Source: Candidatus Avidehalobacter gallistercoris
GTDB taxonomy: Bacteria; Bacillota; Dehalobacteriia; UBA4068; UBA4997
Length of the DNA: 64,000 bases
Direction: 5' to 3'
NCBI GenBank assembly: GCA_018715045.1
Contig: DVMH01000027.1
Location: 6,306 to 70,305, forward strand
Below are positions 650 to 57,116 of this stretch, one piece after another. Within the stretch, counting starts at the first letter, position 1. The number at the start of each line of letters is the position of its first letter. The notes below the pieces were generated by a model, which was not told the origin of the DNA, made no database searches, and saw only the letters and a list, made by a program, of their open reading frames with translations. The position numbers were made by a program, and so were the translations under genes.

Positions 650-3600
650 TCAGTCTGCCAAGTCAGTCCAGTTTTCTGCACTGCCAGACTTTTTGTATTC
701 GTGGCCGTTGGTGGCCTCGATGATGTTATAGTACGCCCAGTTGCTTACCGATACATCGGAGAAAGTGCGCAGACTGCCTGCATGAGCATCTACATAATCT
801 TCATCCGCCGCACGATCCAACAGACGGTTTGTGATGGTGGTCACTTCAGCACGGGTAATGGTATTGTTCGGGCGGAAAGAGCCGTCCTCATAGCCATTGA
901 TCCAGCCATACTGAATCGAGCCAACCACCTGATCATAGAACCAGTCGTCCTCATCTACATCAGTGAAGATGTTTTTGCCGCCGGTATCCAGTTCGGCAAA
1001 GCCCATGGCAATAACCGTAAACTCGGCGCGGGTAATGGCGCGATTCGGGTCGAAACGGTTATCGCCCACACCCTTAATAATTCCAAGAGACGCCAGAGTA
1101 TTCACAGGTTTGGCATACCATGCGTTATCCGCCACATCAACAAAATTCGCCGTTATGGCAACATTTTTATCCAGCAGCAGGTTATAGAACATCTGCGCCA
1201 CCTCGGCACGGGTCATAACACTGCCCGGAGCAAAAGCGCCATCAGCATAGCCGTTCAGGTAAGCGTTATGGTCTTTGGTGTTCAGCCAATCGGATACGTT
1301 GGTATCGTCAGGATCAGCCACACCGCTTTCCAGAGCAAAAATTGCCTCGATAGTGTGTCTTTCCCGCACTTTTTCAAAAGTGTACTTCTCCACTGCGCCG
1401 ACGCTCTCGCCGTCCACCAGCACGTCAGAGATCTCATAGCCTTCGTTGGCCGTGATGGTGAAAGTCCTTTCGCCATTGCGGATCACACTTACGCTGCCGT
1501 CAGGGCTGATCTTGCCGCCCTTGCCGGCGCTGGCGTTGATGATATAGCGGGTGGCGCCGCCGCCGGTATTCACGGCAAAGCTGGCGGTTATGGCCGCATT
1601 GGCAGTGATGTTTTCAATCTCATAACTGCTTACCGCGCCAACGCTTTGACCGTTGACGGTAACATCAGAGATGTGATAGCCTGAATTAGCGGCGATAGTG
1701 AAAGTCTGATTTTCGCCGCGCTTCACAAACACTGTGCCGCTCGGGCTGATTGTACCGTTAGCGCCAGCCTGCGCCGTAACGGTCAGATAGGTTGGCTCGT
1801 CGGGAATACCGTCACCGTCAGTATCCTCGCCAAAGTAGGCTACGACAGCGCTGTCCGCCTGCACATCTTCAAGGGTCCAGACGCTTTCAAACGGATTTTC
1901 GGCGTCATTGTTGGCATAGACCACATCATCGTTGACAGTGATGTAATCCAGAGCATAGTCCGCGTTCGCAGTGATGGTGAATTCAACATCATCGCCAGCC
2001 CTGACCACCTTAGTAGCAGGACTAATGGAGCCGTTGTTGGAACCGTCCACGCTGGCGGTTACGGTGTAGGTCTTGTATTTGTCAGGAATGCCATTGCTGT
2101 CAGCATCTTCGGCGAAAGTCACGACGATGCTATGGTCTGCCTGGACATCCGAGAAAGTATAGGTCTTGTTATCCTTATCATATCCTGCCAGGTCCTCTGT
2201 GCCATCGTTGCAGAACGGCGTTCTGTCAATGTAGATAAGATCCACTGCATATCCGGAAGCAGGGCTCAGCGTGAACGCCTTTTCGCCACCCTTCGTAACC
2301 GTAGTGGCCTTATCGGGATTAATGCTGCCATTCAGGCCGGCAAAAGGATAAATTACATAATCATTGCCAAGAACGTCCGCGCGGCCATCACCGTCCGCAT
2401 CGTAGCCCCAAACCGCATAAACGGTGATATTCGCCTTATCAAAGGTTACAGCAGGAACAATTGTAATCTTTGCAAAAGCTGCTTTATCATCATCGCTGTC
2501 GCTATAGATTTGATCGGTATCATTTGCAGACCAGCCAATGAATACTACTTTCTTTGCATCAGCTCCAGATTCCGTATAGGAAAGACTGCTGCCGTCAGCC
2601 AGCACCACAGTCTGTCCGGAAATATAATCGTTATCATCGGTTATACCGCCGGTAACAGTATCATTCTCCATAGCGTTCGTATCATAGGTCAAGGCGTACT
2701 TAGCCGCCTGCTCCACATCCGGAACGCCATCCCCGTCCTCATCATAAGCCCAGGCGGCGTAGAGCTGTGTGCCGGTTGCGGAAATCGTTACGCTGTACTG
2801 GAGCTTGCTCAAAACGCCTGTATCTTCAGCACCGTAAATTTTATTATCCTCTTTATCATTTTCTGTCAGCCAGCCGAGGAACAAGACGTCTTTTCCATCC
2901 ACCGCATCGTGCGTCGGGGCATCTACCTTAACGGCGGAATCCGTAAACCGATAACTCTTTTCTTCCAGATGCTGCTTGGTAATCGTTGCATTACCATCCG
3001 CGAACTCACCGCCGTTAGCGTTATAAGTCAACGTGCGGTTGTATTTATCGGGGATATTACCGTCGCCTGTAACTGCATCAAAAGTGATACTTATGGTATG
3101 ATTAGCCGCTACATTGTTGAAGCTGACCGCCTGGAAGCTGGTGGAAGTGTAGCCAGCACCGCTGGGAGAAGCCGCGCCATTAGTATTCTTGTACGGAACG
3201 TTGTCCACCGTAATGGTATCCACAGCATAACCGGAATCCGGGGTAATATTTACCGTCAGGTTTTGCCCCGCAACCACAGAGTAAGTGTTAGAGAGCGTTC
3301 TCGCCAAACTGTTCGCAGCAGGCTGATTAAAACTATAATCAACTGCGGCGGAGCCATTGTCGCCAGTTTCCACCGTGATAGTCCAGGTACCATCATTAAT
3401 ATCCGCAGTGCCATTGCCGTCAGCATCATAGCCCCAAACAGCATAAACCGTCGTATTTCCTGTGATATCCACAGAGGTAACTATATCAGTAGGCCGTGAA
3501 TCATTGACACTGTAAATATTTTCATGCTTAGTTTCAGACCAGCCCATGCACACAACCGCTACGGTCTTTTTATCCCAAGTGCCTTCAGCGTGGGTGGGAA

Positions 3601-6600
3601 GAGGCGCACCACTCAACAGCGTATAGCCTGTCTGCGCCACTACGTCAACAGTTTTTGTTGTCGCATTATCAGCAAATGCGCCGCCGTTAGCGTTATAAGT
3701 CAGAGTGTAGACATCCTCCGCCACATCAGCCGTACCATCGTTGTTGGTGTCGTAACCCCAAACCGCGTAAAGAGTCGTGTTAGTGTTCGGCATCGTATAC
3801 TGAGCGCTCGCTGCATATACGGTCAGAGCAGCAAATTCCTGCTTGTCTTCCAGGCTGTATATCTTATCCGTCTTAGTTTCCGTCCAGCCGATGAAAGCCA
3901 CTGCCTTGCCATCCACATTGCTGTGCGCCGGTTTATCCACCGACAGGGCAACAGTTGTGCCACCCTGTATACCGCCCTGCTGAGCAGGCACCCCTGTTAC
4001 CGTGCCCTCGATCGCATTGCCGTTATAAGTAAGCAGATATGTTGCCGTAGTAGCATCATATGCATTGGTGACGGTCACGCTCTTATCTAAGGTCACAGTA
4101 CCACTTTTGTCCGCATAATTGATGTAACCGCCCTGGCCGACCGCAGCAACTACATCTCCGGTAAACGCAGGTGTATAACCGTCAACATGAGTCTGCGTCA
4201 ACTGATATTGGGCGCCCACGGGCAGACCCTCAATCACTGCCGTATCCCCAGCTTTCAGGCTGAACGTACCGCCATTGCTTATTTTTGTGCCAGAATCAGT
4301 GTTGTTAATCTTAATCGCATATGCGCCGGAAAGAGCAGTCTGACCATTCAGGTTAGAGAGATTCAGGGTATAAGTAAACTCCTGATCTTGATTTGCACCA
4401 TCTCCAGTGGTAGCATCCACAGTCACGGTAAGGCTGCCGGTAAGCGCAGCCTCCGTCAGCAGGCCGTTGTTACCCAGACGCACGGTGACCTGCCCATTAG
4501 CAAACACGGGATAGTTATATGTCGATGCGGTATCGGTCACATTTGGAGATTTAACGAAATTCGCATCGGCTACGCGGGAGAGCTTATCGGTACCCGCTTT
4601 GATGTACAGAACGCTATCCACTATCATAGCGTTGTTTGATACACTAATACGGCTGCCGTCTTCCAGCATATGATAATCGGTCAGCTTATCGGCAGCATCG
4701 CCTATGCCAGTTGCCTGATAGTAAACATGCTCATAATAATAGGCAAGACCAGGCGTATAGCCTGTCGCCGGCTGAAGCCGGTAAGCAACGTCGTTAACAT
4801 TTACCACATTCTGACCCGGCAGAATAGTCGTTTGACCTGCCGCCGCGGCGGCTGCTTCGGTAAGGTAGGTTGTTGTGCCGCCTGCTGTATTTACCAGATT
4901 ATAGAGAACGGTATCCTCGGTGTACTTATAGAAAGCGTTGGATGATGCGGGCGTGAACACAGCAGTGGCAGTACCATACTGCTCGTCGCCCTGCGTGGCG
5001 CTATCATATTCCCCTGCATAGTAACTGGTTACACCGTTCAGGGAATTAGCCGTCAGATAATCGTTATCCGCAACGCCCCAGGTGTGCGTATCATCTTTGG
5101 CCACCGAGTAAAACAGGCGGATGGGATAGGCATTCTTACCCTCCTGAATAGCATAGGAGATTGTTCCGTTCGGGTCTACGGCAGCCGTGGCCGTGACTGT
5201 ACGCAGCGGCAGAAGATTAGCCGGAATCGTCCAGCTCAACATATTCAGATCATTGTCGCCTTTGGTAACGGTCAACTGGATTGTATTCAGATTGCCGCCG
5301 GGGTAAATATCATTGGCATCGATTTGTTGACTGGGGAAAGTATAGGTTGTCGTATCACCAATTGTATTCGAAGTTACAGCGTCATACTTATTGCCACCAA
5401 ACACGATAGACGGCATACCGGTCACATTCATATATGCCCCCAGCTTATCGGTAAAGGTCAGCACCTTACTATCGCCGCCAGTACCCGCCACGCCCTCAAT
5501 CTCGGTAGTCGGGAAAGAAGGATTGACGGTATTCACCTGATTTATTATTTGATCAAAAATGTTTTGCCAAGCGTCTCCTGTATCAAGATCCGTGGCAGCA
5601 AAGTAACCGTCATTGTACTTCAGGTCATCCAAAGTCAACTCAGTGTTGCTTCCGCGATAAATGGTCTGATATATGTGCCTATCTCTTATAGCAGCTTGTG
5701 CACGCATCAACTGAACAGAAGAATTATTAAATGATTCTAAAGCATCCTTTACAAGTACATTTTCTATACCTATTTGCAAAGCATCCGTCAGAGTTGCCTG
5801 TGGATTCAGCACCAGTTCAGCCATGGTTTTATCGGAATCATTTGTCAGATCGCCCAAACCCACGGTGTAGATATAAGGCTGCTTGCTGTTTCCGTTGTAG
5901 GTATAGTTTTCTTCTATGGCCTGCTTACCATAAGCCGCTGTCAGCAACGATAAAAAACTCTGAGCAATATAGTTCTGCGGGTTAAGATTTGCAATCTGTC
6001 CATCAATATTAAACGGATTTACATAACTAGACTCTTCCATTGCTTGCGGAGTGCCTACATAAAGCTCGTTTCCTCTTTCAGGGTTGCCGCTGGCCATGGA
6101 GATCACCACCGGAACGCGCAACACGGTTTCGGTTTGCCCGCTGGTATTTTTAACCTCAGCCGTTACGTCAGCCGCGCTGGAAAGATTATACATACCCTCG
6201 TTAATGCCCACCTGATAATTCCGATAGCAGGTGCTGTCAAAATCAAAGGCTATCGAGACCAACGGCTGGCCGGTCAAAATACCCCGCGAAGCAACACCGT
6301 CTTGAGTCCGAACCAGAAGTTGAGTGGTTGCGGTTCCATTATCATAGTTCTCATAATGATTCAGAGGCAGCAGGGTCAGTGAGGTGTTATCATAAGTAAC
6401 CACACTAACTCTGTTTTGCGGGTTGGAAACCAGAATCTCACGCAAAGCTGCATTTGCAGCCACAAGCATTTCATTCACATACTGCTCCATATCGGGCGAC
6501 ATATCCAGCACCAGAGAAACATCCATAGGAATCTGTGTCTGATCAATGATCGTGGCAGTCGAACCCAGGGCGGACAATACCACCTGGAAGTCTGCATCAG

Positions 6601-6865
6601 CTGCTTTGTCGATAGTCAGACCGCTGTCGCCCACATCACCCTGAAGCGTGATGCTTTCTTCGGATACGGTTTTATCCGTCCAGATACGGCCAATATCTTT
6701 GGTGGAAAGCGTATCCCCGCCAAAAACCTCACTCCATGTGGTTAAAGTGGAGGCGTCAGTTTGTACGCCCTCTACGTCGTCTGCCATCACCGGCACGCCC
6801 GGCGGAATAACCAATCCCACCAGCATAACCAATGACAGCGCCATTGCTATAAGCTTTCTTTTCAT
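650..6865 (-). CDS. Giant (2,071 aa) secreted, S-layer-homology-anchored adhesin-like protein with a VWA-like head, Listeria-Bacteroides-type repeats, InlB-B-repeat-like modules and 3 C-terminal SLH domains
   Basis: ORF track. Signal peptide MKRKLIAMALSLVMLVGLVIPPGVPVMA. GRIWTDKTV plus DVSLVLDMSPDM form a degenerate MIDAS/VWA-like head. A prealbumin/Cna-B-like segment reads LTGSLTVTVDATTGDG...EGLPVGAQYQLTQTHVDGYTP. Repeated Y(T/A)LTYNANGG...YAVWGYDxDGDGxxDV modules and repeated G(S/T/K)ISP...F(T)I.A..GY.I..V.V modules follow. The C-terminus has three SLH domains. RBS GGAAAGGAG precedes ATG 6865. Confidence 0.9.
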   Translation of the reverse strand: MKRKLIAMALSLVMLVGLVIPPGVPVMADDVEGVQTDASTLTTWSEVFGGDTLSTKDIGRIWTDKTVSEESITLQGDVGDSGLTIDKAADADFQVVLSALGSTATIIDQTQIPMDVSLVLDMSPDMEQYVNEMLVAANAALREILVSNPQNRVSVVTYDNTSLTLLPLNHYENYDNGTATTQLLVRTQDGVASRGILTGQPLVSIAFDFDSTCYRNYQVGINEGMYNLSSAADVTAEVKNTSGQTETVLRVPVVISMASGNPERGNELYVGTPQAMEESSYVNPFNIDGQIANLNPQNYIAQSFLSLLTAAYGKQAIEENYTYNGNSKQPYIYTVGLGDLTNDSDKTMAELVLNPQATLTDALQIGIENVLVKDALESFNNSSVQLMRAQAAIRDRHIYQTIYRGSNTELTLDDLKYNDGYFAATDLDTGDAWQNIFDQIINQVNTVNPSFPTTEIEGVAGTGGDSKVLTFTDKLGAYMNVTGMPSIVFGGNKYDAVTSNTIGDTTTYTFPSQQIDANDIYPGGNLNTIQLTVTKGDNDLNMLSWTIPANLLPLRTVTATAAVDPNGTISYAIQEGKNAYPIRLFYSVAKDDTHTWGVADNDYLTANSLNGVTSYYAGEYDSATQGDEQYGTATAVFTPASSNAFYKYTEDTVLYNLVNTAGGTTTYLTEAAAAAAGQTTILPGQNVVNVNDVAYRLQPATGYTPGLAYYYEHVYYQATGIGDAADKLTDYHMLEDGSRISVSNNAMIVDSVLYIKAGTDKLSRVADANFVKSPNVTDTASTYNYPVFANGQVTVRLGNNGLLTEAALTGSLTVTVDATTGDGANQDQEFTYTLNLSNLNGQTALSGAYAIKINNTDSGTKISNGGTFSLKAGDTAVIEGLPVGAQYQLTQTHVDGYTPAFTGDVVAAVGQGGYINYADKSGTVTLDKSVTVTNAYDATTATYLLTYNGNAIEGTVTGVPAQQGGIQGGTTVALSVDKPAHSNVDGKAVAFIGWTETKTDKIYSLEDKQEFAALTVYAASAQYTMPNTNTTLYAVWGYDTNNDGTADVAEDVYTLTYNANGGAFADNATTKTVDVVAQTGYTLLSGAPLPTHAEGTWDKKTVAVVCMGWSETKHENIYSVNDSRPTDIVTSVDITGNTTVYAVWGYDADGNGTADINDGTWTITVETGDNGSAAVDYSFNQPAANSLARTLSNTYSVVAGQNLTVNITPDSGYAVDTITVDNVPYKNTNGAASPSGAGYTSTSFQAVSFNNVAANHTISITFDAVTGDGNIPDKYNRTLTYNANGGEFADGNATITKQHLEEKSYRFTDSAVKVDAPTHDAVDGKDVLFLGWLTENDKEDNKIYGAEDTGVLSKLQYSVTISATGTQLYAAWAYDEDGDGVPDVEQAAKYALTYDTNAMENDTVTGGITDDNDYISGQTVVLADGSSLSYTESGADAKKVVFIGWSANDTDQIYSDSDDDKAAFAKITIVPAVTFDKANITVYAVWGYDADGDGRADVLGNDYVIYPFAGLNGSINPDKATTVTKGGEKAFTLSPASGYAVDLIYIDRTPFCNDGTEDLAGYDKDNKTYTFSDVQADHSIVVTFAEDADSNGIPDKYKTYTVTASVDGSNNGSISPATKVVRAGDDVEFTITANADYALDYITVNDDVVYANNDAENPFESVWTLEDVQADSAVVAYFGEDTDGDGIPDEPTYLTVTAQAGANGTISPSGTVFVKRGENQTFTIAANSGYHISDVTVNGQSVGAVSSYEIENITANAAITASFAVNTGGGATRYIINASAGKGGKISPDGSVSVIRNGERTFTITANEGYEISDVLVDGESVGAVEKYTFEKVRERHTIEAIFALESGVADPDDTNVSDWLNTKDHNAYLNGYADGAFAPGSVMTRAEVAQMFYNLLLDKNVAITANFVDVADNAWYAKPVNTLASLGIIKGVGDNRFDPNRAITRAEFTVIAMGFAELDTGGKNIFTDVDEDDWFYDQVVGSIQYGWINGYEDGSFRPNNTITRAEVTTITNRLLDRAADEDYVDAHAGSLRTFSDVSVSNWAYYNIIEATNGHEYKKSGSAENWTDLAD
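653..1297 (-). other. C-terminal cell-wall anchor: three tandem SLH domains plus a fourth SLH-like remnant (last 215 aa of the giant CDS)
   Basis: The three domains read VSDWLNTKDHNAYLNGYADGAFAPGSVMTRAEVAQMFYNLL, FVDVADNAWYAKPVNTLASLGIIKGVGDNRFDPNRAITRAEFTVIAMGFA and FTDVDEDDWFYDQVVGSIQYGWINGYEDGSFRPNNTITRAEVTTITNRLL. FSDVSVSNWAYYNIIEA is the remnant. Coordinates come from counting residues back from the stop. Confidence 0.85.
2370..4045 (-). repeat. Four tandem protein-coding modules inside the giant CDS (Listeria-Bacteroides/Flg_new-type repeat followed by a DxDxDG acidic loop); borders approximate
   Basis: Modules begin TYLLTYNGNAIEG, VYTLTYNANGGAFADN, RTLTYNANGGEFADG and YALTYDTNAMEND. 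Each ends (L/V)YA(V/A)W(G/A)YD(T/A/E)(N/D)(N/G)DG(T/V/R)(A/P)DV. The recurring WGYD-encoding DNA is visible near 3770, 3435, 2750 and 2410. Confidence 0.7.
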
Positions 6866-13526: not shown

Positions 13527-13544
13527 TTTCTATACTATATAATA

Positions 13545-13710
13545 AAAACTCTGCGCGGTGCCGCAAGGCATAACAGGGAAACAGGTTCAAATCCTGTACT
13601 GTCCCAGCAACCGTGATACTGACGAACGGGCGCACAGCCACTATTCCGCAGGAATGGGAAGGAGCCCTATTAGGAAGAAGTTAAGTCGGTAGACCTACCG
13701 CAGGCAGTTA
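13545..13710 (+). promoter_or_regulatory. Cobalamin (B12) riboswitch aptamer
   Basis: Conserved core GGTGCCGCAAGGCATAACAGGGAAACAGGTTCAAATCCTGTACTGTCCCAGCAACCGTGA. B12-box region AGCCACTATTCCGCAGGAATGGGAAGG. Candidate P1 pairs CTGCG (13551-13555) with CGCAG (13699-13703). It lies directly upstream of cobQ. Confidence 0.9.
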
Positions 13711-13764
13711 CTTTCTGGGCAAAAGCATTATGGTCTTACTATGCCGTAATGAAACAGACTGGCA

Positions 13765-13834: not shown

Positions 13835-15319
13835 ATGAAAGGCATTATGATACAGGGCTGCTCCAGCGACGCGGGCAAAAGCTATGTGGCGACAGCGCTG
13901 TGCCGTGTGTTAGCCGATATGGGGCGCAGGGTTTCGCCCTTTAAGAGTCAGAATATGTCCAATAATTCATACGTCACGTGGGACGGCGGTGAGATTGGCC
14001 GGGCGCAGGGCGTGCAGGCCGAGGCCGCGGGCGTTATACCGGAGACATACATGAACCCCATTCTGCTGAAGCCGCAGAAGAACAGCGGTTCGGAAATCGT
14101 GCTGTTCGGACAGGTATATAAGAGTATGCCGGGAAGCGAGTATCACGCGCATTTTACCATGAACGAAGGCATACAGGCCGTGCGAAAGGCGCTTGGCATT
14201 ATCGCAGCCAATTACGACACTATTGTTATCGAAGGCGCGGGCAGTCCCGCCGAGGTGAACCTGAACGCGCATGAGATCGTTAACATGCGCATTGCCAGAG
14301 AAGCCGACGTACCGGTGCTGTTGGTGGCTGACGTCAACCGGGGCGGCAGCTTCGCCTCCATCGTGGGCACTTTGGAGTTGCTGGGCGAGGACAGAAACCG
14401 CGTTAAGGGAATCATCTTCAACCAGTTTCGCGGCGACATCGCCCTGTTCACCGATGGCGCCAAATGGATAGAGGAATACACCGGCGTCAAAGTGGTGGGC
14501 GTTCTGCCTTATTTCACCGATATCAACATTGAGGGCGAGGATTCTTTAAGCATCAATTTTGAGCATACCTCCGGCGCGGCGCGCCCCATTCGTATCGGCG
14601 TGGTAAAGCTACCGTACATATCCAACCACACTGATATGGAAATTTTCCGCTATGAGCCGGACGTTGACGTGCGGCAGGTGGATGAATTCACGGAACTGAC
14701 AGATTTTGACGCCATAATTCTGCCCGGAACCAAAAGCACCATCGCCGATTTGGCATATCTGGAGCAAAGCGGCTTGGCCGATAAAATCCGGCGTTTTCCC
14801 GGTTTCATCTATGGTATCTGCGGTGGTTATCAGATAATGGGGCAGAAGATGCTTGACCCGGACGGCGTTGATTTTAAGCCCGGTTTTCAGGCGGCGGGGC
14901 TGGGGCTGCTCCCACTTGTCACCCGATTTCAGCCGCAGAAGCACGTGCAGCAGCAGCAGGCGCGTGGCCTGCATCCCATGCTGGGCGGTATGACGGCGCT
15001 TGGCTATGAGATACACCTTGGCGAAAGCGAGCTCGTCTCCGATACGGCTCTTCCCCTATGGCAAATAGAGCGGCATACTGACGGCGCGGCCACCCCGGAC
15101 TTGCGCGTGGCCGGGTCATACCTGCACAATGTATTCCATAACGACACATTCCGCAATATCTGGCTGAACCAAATCCGCAAAAGCATTGGTTTAAAGCCGT
15201 TGCCCCCGGTGGATACCGCCGCCATTAAAGAACAGCAATACGCCAAACTGGGCGAATATGCCAGAAAGTATCTGGACATCGACTATATCCTCCGCCTGAT
15301 TGACGGCAAAAATCAGTAA
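13835..15319 (+). CDS. cobQ: Cobyric acid synthase (glutamine amidotransferase)
   Basis: 494 aa. N-terminus MKGIMIQGCSSDAGKSYVATALCRVL. Contains EGAGSPAEVNL and the GATase-like IYGICGGYQIMG. Confidence 0.95.
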   Translation: MKGIMIQGCSSDAGKSYVATALCRVLADMGRRVSPFKSQNMSNNSYVTWDGGEIGRAQGVQAEAAGVIPETYMNPILLKPQKNSGSEIVLFGQVYKSMPGSEYHAHFTMNEGIQAVRKALGIIAANYDTIVIEGAGSPAEVNLNAHEIVNMRIAREADVPVLLVADVNRGGSFASIVGTLELLGEDRNRVKGIIFNQFRGDIALFTDGAKWIEEYTGVKVVGVLPYFTDINIEGEDSLSINFEHTSGAARPIRIGVVKLPYISNHTDMEIFRYEPDVDVRQVDEFTELTDFDAIILPGTKSTIADLAYLEQSGLADKIRRFPGFIYGICGGYQIMGQKMLDPDGVDFKPGFQAAGLGLLPLVTRFQPQKHVQQQQARGLHPMLGGMTALGYEIHLGESELVSDTALPLWQIERHTDGAATPDLRVAGSYLHNVFHNDTFRNIWLNQIRKSIGLKPLPPVDTAAIKEQQYAKLGEYARKYLDIDYILRLIDGKNQ

Positions 15320-30984: not shown

Positions 30985-31059
30985 TCCTCGATAGCTCAAC
31001 GGTAGAGCACTCGGCTGTTAACCGAGGGGTTGTTGGTTCGAATCCAACTCGGGGAGCCA
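30985..31059 (+). tRNA. tRNA-Asn (anticodon GTT), CCA encoded
   Basis: Acceptor stem TCCTCGA/TCGGGGA. D-arm TAGCTCAACGGTAGAGCA. Anticodon loop CTGTTAA. T-arm GGTTCGAATCC. Ends in GCCA. Confidence 0.9.
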
Positions 31060-31107
31060 TATAGTTAAAGCAACTGCTCTTTCCGAACAGTTGCTTTAAT
31101 TATACCC

Positions 31108-31184
31108 GGGCCATTAGCTCAGTTGGTTAGAGCCACCGGCTCATAACCGGTCGGTCTCAGGTTCGAGTCCTGAATGGCCCACCA
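31108..31184 (+). tRNA. tRNA with CAT anticodon (elongator Met or lysidine-type Ile2; not initiator-like), CCA encoded
   Basis: Acceptor stem GGGCCAT/ATGGCCC. D-arm TAGCTCAGTTGGTTAGAGC. Anticodon loop CTCATAA (CAT at 31142-31144). T-arm GGTTCGAGTCC. G1-C72 is paired and there is no GGG/CCC anticodon stem, so it is not initiator-like. Confidence 0.85.
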
Positions 31185-41463: not shown

Positions 41464-44124
<2,661 letters not shown>

Positions 44125-44141
44125 TCCGGAGGTTGATATCA

Positions 44142-45239
44142 ATGTTGACAGACTGGAAACCGCAAATTGAGCGAGCCGAGGAAAAACTGCACGAGCTGGA
44201 AAAAGCTCTCGACATGACCTGAAGGGAGGATGAGGCCGCGCGGCTGGAAGAACAATCCGCCGCCCCCGGCTTCTGGGATGATCAAGAGGCGGCGCAGAGC
44301 CTGCTGCAAAAGCTGACCCAACTGAAATCCGTCATCAACAACTATAATGATTTAAGCAGCCGTCTTTCCGACGTGCAAACATTGCTGGAATTGGCGCTGG
44401 AGGAAAATGACGAGGCCCTGGAAAAGGAAATCGAACATGATTTCCACGCGCTATCCCGCGATTTGGATAAGCTGGAGATCGAAGTGCTGTTCAGCGGCCC
44501 CTATGACGACCACAACTGCATTTTAACGCTGCACGCGGGTGCGGGCGGCACTGAAGCGCAGGACTGGGCGGATATGCTATACCGCATGTATACCCGCTTT
44601 TGCGAGAAGAATGGCTTCAAATGCGAGGTCCTGGATTATCTGGACGGTGAAGAAGCCGGCTTAAAAAGCGTTACCTTGGGCATTGAGGGCGCACATGCTT
44701 ATGGTCATTTCCGCTCGGAAAAAGGGGTTCATCGGCTGGTGCGTATCTCGCCGTTTGACGCTTCGGCCAGACGTCACACCTCGTTCGCTTCGGTAGATAT
44801 TATGCCGCAGGTACAGGAAGATAATGAAATCATTATCCACCCGGAGGAGTTAAAAATAGACACCTATCGCAGCGGCGGTGCGGGCGGCCAGCACGTCAAC
44901 AAGACTGACTCTGCCGTGCGTATCACTCACCTGCCCACTGGCATTGTAGTGCAGTGCCAGGATGAACGCTCGCAGTATAACAACAAGGATCGTGCGATGA
45001 ATCTGCTAAAAGCAAGGCTGCTGGAAGAAAAAGTGCGCGAGCGCGAAAAAGAGCTGGCCGAAATCCGCGGCGAACACACCGAAATCGGCTGGGGCAACCA
45101 GATACGTTCTTACGTGTTTCAGCCATACCGCATGGTAAAAGACCACCGCACAAATGAAGAATCCGGCAACGTTGACGCAGTAATGGACGGTGAGCTGCTG
45201 CCCTTTATGAGCGCTTATCTGAAAAAGTTTAAGGGTTGA
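44142..45239 (+). CDS. prfB: Peptide chain release factor 2, interrupted by an IN-FRAME TGA (44220-44222) at the position of the canonical +1 frameshift site
   Basis: GGAGG (44127-44131) is followed 10 nt later by ATG 44142. This opens 26 codons ([26 protein letters not shown]) ending in TGA. The same frame then stays open to 45239 ([28 protein letters not shown]...). It carries the RF2 motifs SPF ([15 protein letters not shown]) and GGQ ([21 protein letters not shown]). The ORF-track entry 44373..45239 is in the same frame as ATG 44142 (difference 231 nt). Confidence 0.85.
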
Positions 45240-45411
45240 TAAACTAAAACTTTTGGCAGAGTTTTGATAAAAATTTTCGCTTCATCAATAAATTACACGG
45301 AAAGCATCGGTAAAACCTGCGTGTTCAGAGTACAGCGCAAGGCGGACAAAAAGAATGCATTAGTTAACTTTTATTAATATAAAATTTTGCAAGGATTTGG
45401 GGGTTATATTT

Positions 45412-55207: not shown

Positions 55208-55873
55208 TTATTCCACTTTGGCCGCAGCAAACAACACCCGCCGCTGCCAATGCTCAATCTGCGTAATAACCAAACCCGTCGCCGTCAGTTTTGCCGCCGC
55301 CTCGTTCTGACGCTCTTCCGGCAGCAGCAGACAAAACCGTCCGCCAGGAGCAAGAATATAGGCAGCCGCTTGTATAAGCGACTTCAAACCGCCAAAGCAC
55401 TCAATCCGCGCCGCCCGCCTCTCCAGACAGGGACTAAGCCGGCTTGCTTCAGCCCGCCAGAACGGAGGATTGCTGACAACCAAATCGCACCCGGCGGCGG
55501 GAAAATATTGTGATATCTGACGCCAATCACCGCAAACAAAGCGTATCTGCCGCAACAGTTCCGGCACGTTATGATTCAATTCGATACTGCGCTGCGCCAG
55601 GCTCACATTGGCAGACATGATTTCCAGACCAGTGCAACTGGCCTCATTGAGCTTCGCCCATAAATAAAACGTCAGCCCACCGTTGCCGCTGCCCAACTCG
55701 ATAACTCGCCGCGCTTCCGGCAAGGCGTCCGCCGCAAAATCCGCCAGCCGCACCGCCTCACCGGAAAAACAAAAAAACCGAGGATCTTGCAGCAGCCTCA
55801 ATCCTCGCTCTCGCAAATCAATTATGACTTCGCCGGGGCGGCAAAGCAACGCCCCGGACTTGTTAGCTGCCAT
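55208..55873 (-). CDS. SAM-dependent N6-adenine methyltransferase, YabB/TrmN6-like
   Basis: 221 aa. Motifs: VIELGSGNGGLTFYL (motif I) and LVVSNPPFW (NPPF motif IV). It occupies the yabB position of the Bacillus-type gene order. Confidence 0.65.
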   Translation of the reverse strand: MAANKSGALLCRPGEVIIDLRERGLRLLQDPRFFCFSGEAVRLADFAADALPEARRVIELGSGNGGLTFYLWAKLNEASCTGLEIMSANVSLAQRSIELNHNVPELLRQIRFVCGDWRQISQYFPAAGCDLVVSNPPFWRAEASRLSPCLERRAARIECFGGLKSLIQAAAYILAPGGRFCLLLPEERQNEAAAKLTATGLVITQIEHWQRRVLFAAAKVE

Positions 55874-55876
55874 AAA

Positions 55877-56149
55877 TCAAGCGTTCTCCTTCAAAAAGCT
55901 CTGGCAGAACAGACACTCCTCGCCATGACGGTTCTGCGCAAAATAGGTGGCGCAAATGTGATAGCCCTCGTCATAAAGCTTGGTTAGCTCCTCCACTCCC
56001 TCGCTCTTGATGTTTTCCTCACTCAGGCGCTCCAGCAGGCGAGCGTTCTGCACCTCCAGCGAGTCCACTTTCAGCCGCAGCTCCTGCAAACGATCCTGCA
56101 ACGCCGCCAGAGCCTCTTCAATCTCCCAAATTTCATTCCGCAGCGCCAT
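55877..56149 (-). CDS. yabA: DNA replication initiation control protein YabA
   Basis: 90 aa from ATG 56149; the longer ORF-track entry 55877..56491 is an upstream read-through of this frame. Coiled coil reads IEEALAALQDRLQELRLKVDSLEVQNARLLERL. C-terminal Zn motif reads HICATYF...ECLFCQSFL. Confidence 0.8.
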   Translation of the reverse strand: MALRNEIWEIEEALAALQDRLQELRLKVDSLEVQNARLLERLSEENIKSEGVEELTKLYDEGYHICATYFAQNRHGEECLFCQSFLKENA

Positions 56150-57116
56150 GTTGCTCACTCTCCCTCTGCCTGTCCTGCTTCGGTTGATTGGGGCGGTGCG
56201 CCCCGCCGCCGCGCCGGTTGCCCGGTCTTCTGGAATTGCGCCGCAGTGTGCCGCCGCCCTTTTGTTCTGACTTATCGGAACGCTTATCAGGCAAGTTTTC
56301 ACCTGGCATATCATCGGATACCGCCGCCAGCTCCGCCGACGCCAGATCAGGCACATCGTCAACAGAAAGCGCCGCCAGCCGCTCACGCACGCCACAGGTT
56401 TTGGCTGTGCAGTCGCTGCAATTTTTATCGCAGGCGGCAAGAGCCGGCTTCGGTTCGTCCTGCCCGGCAAGTTCTGGCGAGTTCTCGTCATATTCGTAGT
56501 ATAAGCAGCACATCAACCTGCCGCACACACCGGAAATTTTGGCCGGATTCAACGCCAGATTTTGCTTCTTCGCCATTTTGATGGAAACGGGATGAAATCC
56601 ATCCAGAAAAGAGGCGCAGCAAAGCTCGCGCCCGCAGGTGGAATATCCCCCCACCAGGCGCGCCTCATCCCGCACGCCAACCTGACGCAGCTCAATGCGC
56701 GTGTGAAAATGCCCGGCCAGAACTTTCACCAGCTCACGGAAATCCACTCGATTGTCCGACGTGAAATAAAACACGATTTTGCTGCCGTCAAACGTATAGC
56801 TGGCTTTGATCAGCTTCATCGGCAGTTTGGCCGCGATGATCTGCTGCTGGCAGAATTCAAAAGCCGCCGGTTCCTTGGCCTTATTCTCCTGATAGCTTTG
56901 CTCGTCATCGTCGGTTGCCAGACGGATAAGCGGCTTCAGCGGCTGAGATAGACTTTGCTCATCCACTTCCTGCGCAGGCGTGGCCACCGTGCCATAATCC
57001 AGGCCGCGGCTGCTCTCCACGATAACGTGGTCGCCGAAAACAGCATCCACCCCATTAAGCTTAAAATAATATATTTTCCCGGCGCGCTCAAAACGCACGC
57101 CCACCACTTGTACCAT
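56133..57116 (-). CDS. ricT: PSP1-domain protein YaaT/RicT with Cys-rich and Arg/Gly-rich C-terminal extension
   Basis: Start MVQVVGVRFERAGKIYYF at 57116 after GTGAGGA. Motifs: CGRELCCASFL and CGRLMCCLYYE. The tail reads CDKNCSDCTAKTCG...RRNSRRPGNRRGGGAHRPNQPKQDRQRE. Confidence 0.85.
   Translation of the reverse strand: MVQVVGVRFERAGKIYYFKLNGVDAVFGDHVIVESSRGLDYGTVATPAQEVDEQSLSQPLKPLIRLATDDDEQSYQENKAKEPAAFEFCQQQIIAAKLPMKLIKASYTFDGSKIVFYFTSDNRVDFRELVKVLAGHFHTRIELRQVGVRDEARLVGGYSTCGRELCCASFLDGFHPVSIKMAKKQNLALNPAKISGVCGRLMCCLYYEYDENSPELAGQDEPKPALAACDKNCSDCTAKTCGVRERLAALSVDDVPDLASAELAAVSDDMPGENLPDKRSDKSEQKGGGTLRRNSRRPGNRRGGGAHRPNQPKQDRQRESEQHGAAE

Follow-up and report, generated by a model that had tools for sequence, protein, structure and literature searches.

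The canonical, autoregulatory +1 frameshift of prfB, the gene for release factor 2 (RF2), is the textbook example of programmed frameshifting; it was found in approximately 64% of 12,753 RefSeq species (PMC12421855). The only states of prfB recorded in that survey were a +1 site with CTTTGA or CTTTAA and the absence of a stop, with read-through unmentioned; a further study treats prfB as either having or lacking programmed ribosomal frameshifting (PRF+ or PRF−), with regain being rare (PMC13245932). UGA read-through in Bacillus subtilis amounted to 6% in the wild type and 19–54% in prfB mutants, according to the account of Karow 1998 that is cited in PMC7918605. Here we analyze the prfB gene on a 64-kb stretch of Candidatus Avidehalobacter gallistercoris, a metagenome-assembled genome (MAG) from chicken faeces that is placed in order UBA4068 and family UBA5755 of GTDB (PMC8035907). 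This stretch is called the window; all window-level searches for genes and open reading frames (ORFs) cover its whole length, and all positions refer to it. In this gene an in-frame UGA stands at codon 27, it is conserved in related lineages, and the best explanation for it is probably a programmed, RF2-sensed read-through that gives autoregulation.

The gene lies at 44142–45239 on the plus strand, as do all its features given below, and has 365 codons when the in-frame TGA at codon 27 is counted. This TGA (44220–44222), read directly in the sequence, is the proposed site of recoding by read-through. The ATG at 44142 stands 9 nt 3′ of a Shine-Dalgarno (SD) sequence, GGAGG, at 44128–44132; an earlier interpretation made from the letters alone (the sequence-only reading) had placed it at 44127–44131. 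The first segment (44142–44219; ATG plus 25 codons) encodes helix α1 and the α1–α2 turn of RF2 and is colinear with positions 2–21 of the NCBIfam prfB model TIGR00020. The second segment (44223–45236; 338 codons) encodes the remainder of RF2 with its PCRF and RF-1 domains, including the tripeptide SPF, the stop-codon recognition motif (residues 203–205; 44748–44756), and the catalytic motif GGQ (residues 248–250; 44883–44891). Residues 28–365 scored 515 bits against TIGR00020 (cut-off 370), the conceptual read-through product scored 526 bits and was colinear with model positions 2–353, and RF1 models scored under their cut-offs. Counted from codon 27, the +1 frame closes after 31 codons (44314–44316) and the −1 frame after three codons. 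The sequence-only reading had described the 26 sense codons, the TGA, the frame open to 45239, its RF2 identity and the closure of the +1 frame; our reading of the sequence, the translation, the ORF list and the model search bear out each of these points. The gene ends in tandem stops, TGA (45237–45239) followed directly by TAA (45237–45242 together); in relatives, the terminator is TGA, TAA or TAG.

Conservation of the in-frame UGA

The protein search with RF2 returned close relatives of two kinds, either full 365-residue proteins or shortened calls of 288–335 residues. The relatives' loci were drawn from NCBI, ENA, JGI and Logan data; for the shortened calls the DNA was fetched and the 5′ regions were read. 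Within the species, the prfB DNA was identical at every base, TGA included, in five independent assemblies from different samples (L104–L108), and many contigs carry the 288-residue ORF 3′ of the TGA. Seven further lineages (L081, L083, L089, L091, L092, L093 and L103), with an RF2 identity of 82–96% to that of the window, have TGA at codon 27 as the only interruption of a 365-codon frame. Together with the window, they make up the eight TGA lineages compared throughout. The RF2 of the L083 lineage is recorded on 543 contigs, and TGA was present in all six of its loci that were read. A comparison of prfB 5′ regions among relatives, which the sequence-only reading had proposed, thus yielded a conserved in-frame TGA with synonymous variation around it. 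Scanning JGI metagenomes with AARGCNCTNGAYATGACNTGAARG gave one true match (L098, which belongs to the L083 lineage), one chance match (L097) and no new lineage; a protein search with the N-terminal 125 residues, with W at position 27, gave a single match, a fragment of 98 residues.

Public records P0004, P0006–P0019, P0043, P0052, P0147 and others are N-terminally shortened prfB ORFs of 288–335 residues, which start at GTG, TTG or CTG (an example from NCBI is MBQ3180657.1, with 331 residues). Because gene callers shorten the ORF, protein databases do not show the in-frame UGA, and surveys of prfB would mis-score the clade.

Synonymous divergence among the TGA lineages is near-saturated: pairwise synonymous divergence (pS) was mostly 0.4–0.9, and was lower only for the closely related pair formed by the window and L081. 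Across the eight lineages, 14 of 95 four-fold degenerate sites (15%) were invariant, and at this rate three unconstrained bases would be expected to stay fixed in approximately 0.3% of cases. That so few four-fold sites are invariant, yet TGA is fixed in all eight lineages, indicates that the stop itself is maintained. The ratio of nonsynonymous to synonymous divergence (pN/pS) was 0.34 for codons 2–26, 0.34 for codons 28–77 and 0.13 for codons 78–365, and alignment of the segments to the RF2 model and to 365-residue homologues that lack the interruption showed no indel at the stop. Equal pN/pS on both flanks, together with colinearity, argues that both sides of the UGA are translated and selected as one protein. 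We observed, therefore, what characterizes read-through genes: an in-frame stop that diverged lineages have kept and whose two flanks evolve under coding-type selection.

The second option of the sequence-only reading was an assembly error or a pseudogene. In its fullest form, this option holds that the TGA is a sequencing or assembly error, or that the gene is inactive and backed by another prfB, and it could draw on the public annotations with their N-terminally shortened ORF of 288–335 residues. Error is already refuted by the five identical assemblies and by the presence of TGA in the seven other lineages, which come from several data sources. A pseudogene is incompatible with the selection pattern, which is strongly purifying 5′ and 3′ of the TGA (pN/pS 0.13 in the body of the gene), and with the conserved synteny, the order secA-prfB-transketolase being intact across the TGA-lineage loci. 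The feature is real and conserved, and the option as a whole can be given next to no weight. In the window, secA has its stop at 44122–44124, which leaves a gap of 17 nt to the prfB ATG; no promoter-like site was found between secA and prfB, and split transketolase genes lie downstream of prfB.

The same comparison bears on internal initiation. Here the 26-codon ORF would be a regulatory leader peptide, and an RF2 without helix α1 would be made by reinitiation or independent initiation downstream, for example at Leu35 (CTG/TTG). A purine-rich, SD-like sequence (ARGG..GAGG) does follow the UGA in all TGA lineages, with Leu35 8 nt past the GAGG, and in L089 and L092 codon 35 is TTG, which gene callers took as the start (P0006 and P0008). 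However, codon 35 is the non-canonical CTG in six of the eight lineages, and no canonical start is conserved in codons 28–77. Uninterrupted relatives, L099 among them, have the arrangement of GAGG, 8 nt and Leu too, which is therefore no hallmark of genes with TGA. Moreover, the 26 codons 5′ of the UGA share homology with the N-terminal helix of RF2, are in frame in eight of eight lineages and have the same pN/pS as codons 28–77. We consider initiation downstream of the UGA quite unlikely.

Nucleotide context and decoding of the UGA

In a gap-free alignment with the RF2 sequences of Escherichia coli, B. subtilis, Dehalobacterium and Zhaonella, the leucine of the canonical slip site corresponds to L23. 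The UGA is thus three codons (9 nt) 3′ of the canonical UGA position, and not at the codon directly after the frameshift junction, where the sequence-only reading had put it. An early, internal and RF2-specific stop, here the UGA at codon 27, is shared with the canonical +1 site, at which the stop is UGA and rarely UAA. The slippery CUU U (CTTTGA) is absent 5′ of the stop, which is preceded by ATG ACN in all eight TGA lineages, and the SD-like AGGGGG/AGGGAG is absent 3 nt upstream of the slip codon, the upstream sequence being AAAGCTCTCGAC. The sole SD-like run lies 3′ of the UGA, the remainder of RF2 is in frame 0 and not in +1, and the base after the stop is A in eight of eight TGA lineages instead of the C of the weak UGA-C. 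Of the five features that define the canonical frameshift site, the prfB gene here therefore lacks four, but it shares the logic of that site. The missing CUU codon and the SD-like run behind the stop had been recognized in the sequence-only reading and recur in the TGA lineages; the full AGGGAGGA motif that it pointed out is not conserved, and only A-R-G-G after the stop is.

A more distant Bacillota panel (L001–L080) comprised 80 representatives among the matches listed, with 55–61% identity and mostly from Lachnospiraceae MAGs. Among these matches listed, 67 of 80 representatives had an SD-like element and CTTTGAC or CTTTAAC, the remainder of RF2 being encoded in +1; prfB was uninterrupted in 13 and had a 0-frame stop in none. 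CTTTAAC, with TAA as the stop, was found at 14 of the 67 canonical sites of the panel among the matches listed, a proportion well above the 1.4% given for RefSeq species (PMC12421855).

All TGA lineages share the local sequence AAR GCT CTS GAY ATG ACN TGA ARG GNN. The 5′ context Met25-Thr26 (44214–44219, AUG ACC in the window) is fixed in eight of eight TGA lineages at the level of the residues, with variation in the Thr codon (ACC, ACG or ACA) and also in the Leu, Asp and Lys codons, whereas the 13 sense-codon relatives have I, V or M at position 25 and T, A, D, E, G or K at position 26. The 3′ context A-R-G-G (44223–44226, AGGG in the window) is invariant in the eight lineages, with A at +4 throughout. 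Codon 28 is AGG in three of three lineages with Arg and AAG in five of five lineages with Lys, and never AAA. Elsewhere in the genes of the TGA lineages, AGG represents one of 164 Arg codons and AAG 83 of 174 Lys codons (AAA being slightly more common), and in the sense relatives codon 28 is AAA or CGA. Conservation of the context thus goes beyond the needs of the protein in UGA-A-R-G-G and in Met-Thr, as is found in programmed read-through, and the pattern indicates that the UGA context is selected at the nucleotide level. The conserved Met-Thr codons and A-R-G-G probably weaken termination or favor near-cognate decoding. In E. coli, A after UGA favors read-through by tRNA-Trp, according to Engelberg-Kulka 1981 and Kopelowitz 1992 as these are cited in PMC10540940.

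Upstream of the UGA, a possible small hairpin, GAGCU-GGAAAA-AGCUC (44193–44208), has its 3′ end 11 nt before the stop. Its alignment columns 4–8 and 15–19 were paired in seven of seven sequences, with one A-C mismatch. This hairpin may be a 5′ element, or its conservation may simply reflect the codon constraints of E-L..A-L. The Ala22 codon is GCT in all eight TGA lineages.

Folding gave no structure that could be assigned to the stop itself: the UGA region folded no better than shuffled sequence (z = −0.49), the alignment fold had an unfavorable covariation term (+1.53), and Rfam had no match at the UGA region. The GC palindrome GCCGCGCGGC, which the sequence-only reading had suggested as a read-through stimulator, does exist in the window (44235–44244), but it is not conserved in relatives, and the two folding values speak against the suggested role. 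The same analyses (folding against shuffles, alignment fold and Rfam) showed no selenocysteine insertion sequence (SECIS)-like hairpin 3′ of the UGA. No homologue has Cys at the position of codon 27, where G, Q or E is found, and neither a tRNA for selenocysteine (tRNA-Sec) nor a tRNA(UCA) was found in the 64 kb of the window.

These results weigh on a dedicated decoding of the UGA, be it as selenocysteine, by a tRNA with a UCA anticodon, or by a drift of the clade to UGA as Trp or Gly (code 4 or 25). Some precedents point in this direction: Providencia siddallii PSAC, whose code is changing, has an in-frame UGA in its prfB (PMC10540940), variants of tRNA-Trp with 4-bp anticodon stems read UGA in diverse bacteria (PMC13092985), and sister genes have Gly at codon 27. 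Yet of the 49 long ORFs in the window, 13 terminate at TGA, some of them in ATGA overlaps where one cobalamin gene runs into the next; the same stop closes six of 32 genes in the relatives' loci, and no other gene with an in-frame TGA was found in the 64 kb. UGA is thus used as a terminator and one gene is interrupted, which is not what a UGA-reassigned code (table 4 or 25) predicts. The loss of RF2 expected of such a code has not occurred either, prfB being present and under purifying selection. Because UGA is an ordinary stop in the window, as the sequence-only reading had maintained, and in relatives, RF2 is needed. In addition to the absence of a Cys homologue, of a conserved 3′ hairpin and, in the window, of the two tRNAs, codon 27 is not a catalytic position, and the clade is not mentioned in the supplements of PMC13092985 on tRNA-Trp types. 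Dedicated decoding is therefore very unlikely.

Two other routes to a full-length product were rejected. A-to-I editing by TadA (UGA to UGG) was dismissed by inspection, the A being followed by A-R-G and not by CG. The known target motif of TadA is UACG. Ribosomal hopping was dismissed as well, no landing codon matching ACC being present nearby.

A TGA at 55877 was considered as a second in-frame TGA and rejected, the Pfam matches being those of two separate genes, yabA and a methyltransferase. On the minus strand, yabA (55877–56491) ends in TGA, and the methyltransferase ORF (55208–55873) is in the same frame one codon later; the pair (55208–56491) stands in the usual order holB-yaaT-yabA-yabB-rsmI. 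The ORF at 650–6865 on the minus strand (2071 residues), called a giant adhesin in the sequence-only reading, ends in TGA followed by T. A cobalamin riboswitch at 13539–13716 (95 bits) precedes a long operon for cobalamin biosynthesis, which begins at 13835, and tRNA-Asn and tRNA-Met are located at 30985–31184.

Gene tree and origin of the UGA

The history of the site was examined with a bootstrapped, single-gene neighbor-joining distance tree of RF2. The canonical genes of Dehalobacterium and Zhaonella were placed outside, followed by an uninterrupted clade with Gly-27 and by a clade, supported at 99%, that interleaves the TGA lineages with two sense groups. The nearest outgroups are uninterrupted and encode Gly-27 as GGC. 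Monophyly of the TGA lineages had a bootstrap value of 0%, and L091 branched outside the rest at 81%. The uninterrupted 365-codon genes of close relatives have CAG at codon 27 in L094 and GGC in L099, L100 and L101. That of L099 (708–1805 of its locus) reads KALD-I-T-G-K-E-D-E, with ATA ACG GGC AAA at the site, and retains most of the context of the TGA lineages; its sequence suggests a recent reversion, with changes already made at the Met codon and at the G of +6. In a likely history, an ancestor would have lost the frameshift site at L23|D24, the UGA would have arisen later, three codons downstream, and at least one sublineage would have lost it again; repeated gains of the UGA are the alternative to this combination of gain and loss. 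This history is tentative, given that it depends on a single-gene distance tree.

A tolerated, leaky nonsense codon must be considered at this point. A change from GGN to UGA would have been fixed by drift, basal read-through would have been enough, later compensation would have locked the UGA in, and feedback would be a by-product. The apparent loss of the UGA, or its failure to be gained, in nested lineages (the Q group and L099) is in line with such an origin. Moreover, in-frame stops that persist under purifying selection have been reported to be widespread in bacteria (PMC7918605), and Pseudomonas fluorescens without prfB autoregulation showed no detectable fitness effect (PMC13245932). 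On the other hand, of the nine codons that one base change can make from UGA, eight are sense codons, yet UGA is fixed in eight lineages despite their near-saturated synonymous divergence, and the context shows selection at the nucleotide level. The leaky-codon account differs from programmed read-through mainly in why the UGA is kept and not in how it works; since RF2 is the only reader of UGA, feedback would follow from the architecture whatever the origin of the codon. As an explanation for the retention of the UGA, we regard drift and lock-in as unlikely.

Other observations weigh against programmed read-through itself. Seven ordinary genes in the window terminate at UGA-A, so an A at +4 is not enough to make a stop very leaky. 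Neither folding against shuffles nor the alignment fold revealed a stimulatory RNA structure near the UGA. The tree requires losses or repeated gains of the UGA, which would make the UGA dispensable in some lineages. Finally, retention of the UGA could partly be lock-in after compensation rather than selection for regulation.

Proposed read-through control and its relation to known systems

Taking these points together with the conservation described, the in-frame UGA of prfB is almost certainly functional, to judge from the comparison of lineages. Read-through autoregulation, the first option of the sequence-only reading, is the best remaining explanation, as no other frame, start, SECIS-like structure or code change is supported. 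In this mechanism, the ribosome would initiate at AUG 44142, translate 26 codons and bring the UGA of codon 27 into the A site. There, RF2, as the sole reader of UGA, would have a near-cognate aminoacyl-tRNA as its competitor, most likely Trp-tRNA(CCA). Termination at codon 27 would release a peptide of 26 residues, and read-through would insert one amino acid with the frame unchanged, giving the 365-residue RF2. High RF2 would thus lower RF2 synthesis and low RF2 would raise it; because the terminating factor is the product of prfB itself, negative feedback would be present by construction. For a sister RF2, AlphaFold (pLDDT, the predicted local distance difference test, of 83) places residue 27 in the first turn of helix α2, directly after the α1–α2 turn. 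Relatives carry Gly, Gln or Glu at this position, so Trp or a similar residue should be tolerated there. From the pattern of conservation we infer that read-through occurs, which residue it inserts, what the context does and that there is feedback, including feedback as the selected benefit.

For the clade as a whole, we lean toward a scenario in which gut Dehalobacteriia-like bacteria (order UBA4068) lost the +1 frameshift and re-evolved RF2 autoregulation by UGA read-through, with a dedicated Met-Thr-UGA-ARG-G signal. No description of a conserved 0-frame UGA in the prfB of a standard-code bacterium was found in open-access papers and preprints. If true, the clade would provide the first case in nature of a bacterial release-factor gene under stop-codon read-through control, a convergent counterpart of the control of plant eRF1, and possibly an intermediate from which UGA reassignment starts; an essential reader of UGA that depends on the misreading of UGA would bear on the onset of such reassignment. 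A second independent route to RF2 feedback would argue for selection on feedback itself and not on frameshifting, and the site would offer a compact bacterial read-through signal for experimental dissection.

Compared with the canonical prfB frameshift of E. coli and B. subtilis, the gene studied here is alike in having an RF2-specific UGA near the α1–α2 turn of domain 1 (at codon 27, the canonical stop being at the equivalent of codon 24), in that RF2 terminates the translation of its own mRNA, and in the secA-prfB operon, which is that of Firmicutes. It differs in the lack of CUU-U and of an SD-like element 3 nt upstream, in A instead of C after the stop, in a site that is 9 nt further downstream, and in the context AUG-ACN-UGA-ARG-G. 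Since the ORF continues in frame 0 and not in +1, a frameshift would be lethal and the stop has to be read through.

Leaky UGA codons are a second point of comparison, the A1 protein of phage Qbeta being an example of UGA read-through. The catA86-TGA reporter of B. subtilis, to which the rise from 6% to 19–54% in prfB mutants refers in the cited account, is another. Such codons are similar in that near-cognate decoding by tRNA-Trp competes with RF2 and in their favorable 3′ A. The leaky-UGA cases are C-terminal extensions or laboratory nonsense alleles, and none of them is a conserved stop inside the release factor's own gene.

In plant eRF1, a class-I release factor is likewise sensed through read-through in its own mRNA, with negative feedback (PMC5397192). 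That system is eukaryotic, the stop that is read through is the gene's own terminator, and the output passes through nonsense-mediated decay elicited by features of the 3′ untranslated region and not through completion of the coding sequence (PMC5397192).

Closest in form is the prfB of Candidatus Providencia siddallii PSAC, a leech endosymbiont, in which a 0-frame UGA also needs read-through, probably by tRNA-Trp, and in which an A-rich 3′ context has been invoked as well (PMC10540940). PSAC represents one reduced endosymbiont genome that is drifting to code 4, its UGA arose from UGG, in-frame UGAs are present in approximately 20% of its genes, and its authors call the prfB a probable pseudogene under code 11 (PMC10540940). 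In the lineages studied here, unlike in PSAC, the UGA is kept across a diverse gut clade that uses UGA as a normal stop, Gly or Gln occupies its place in relatives, and its context is conserved.

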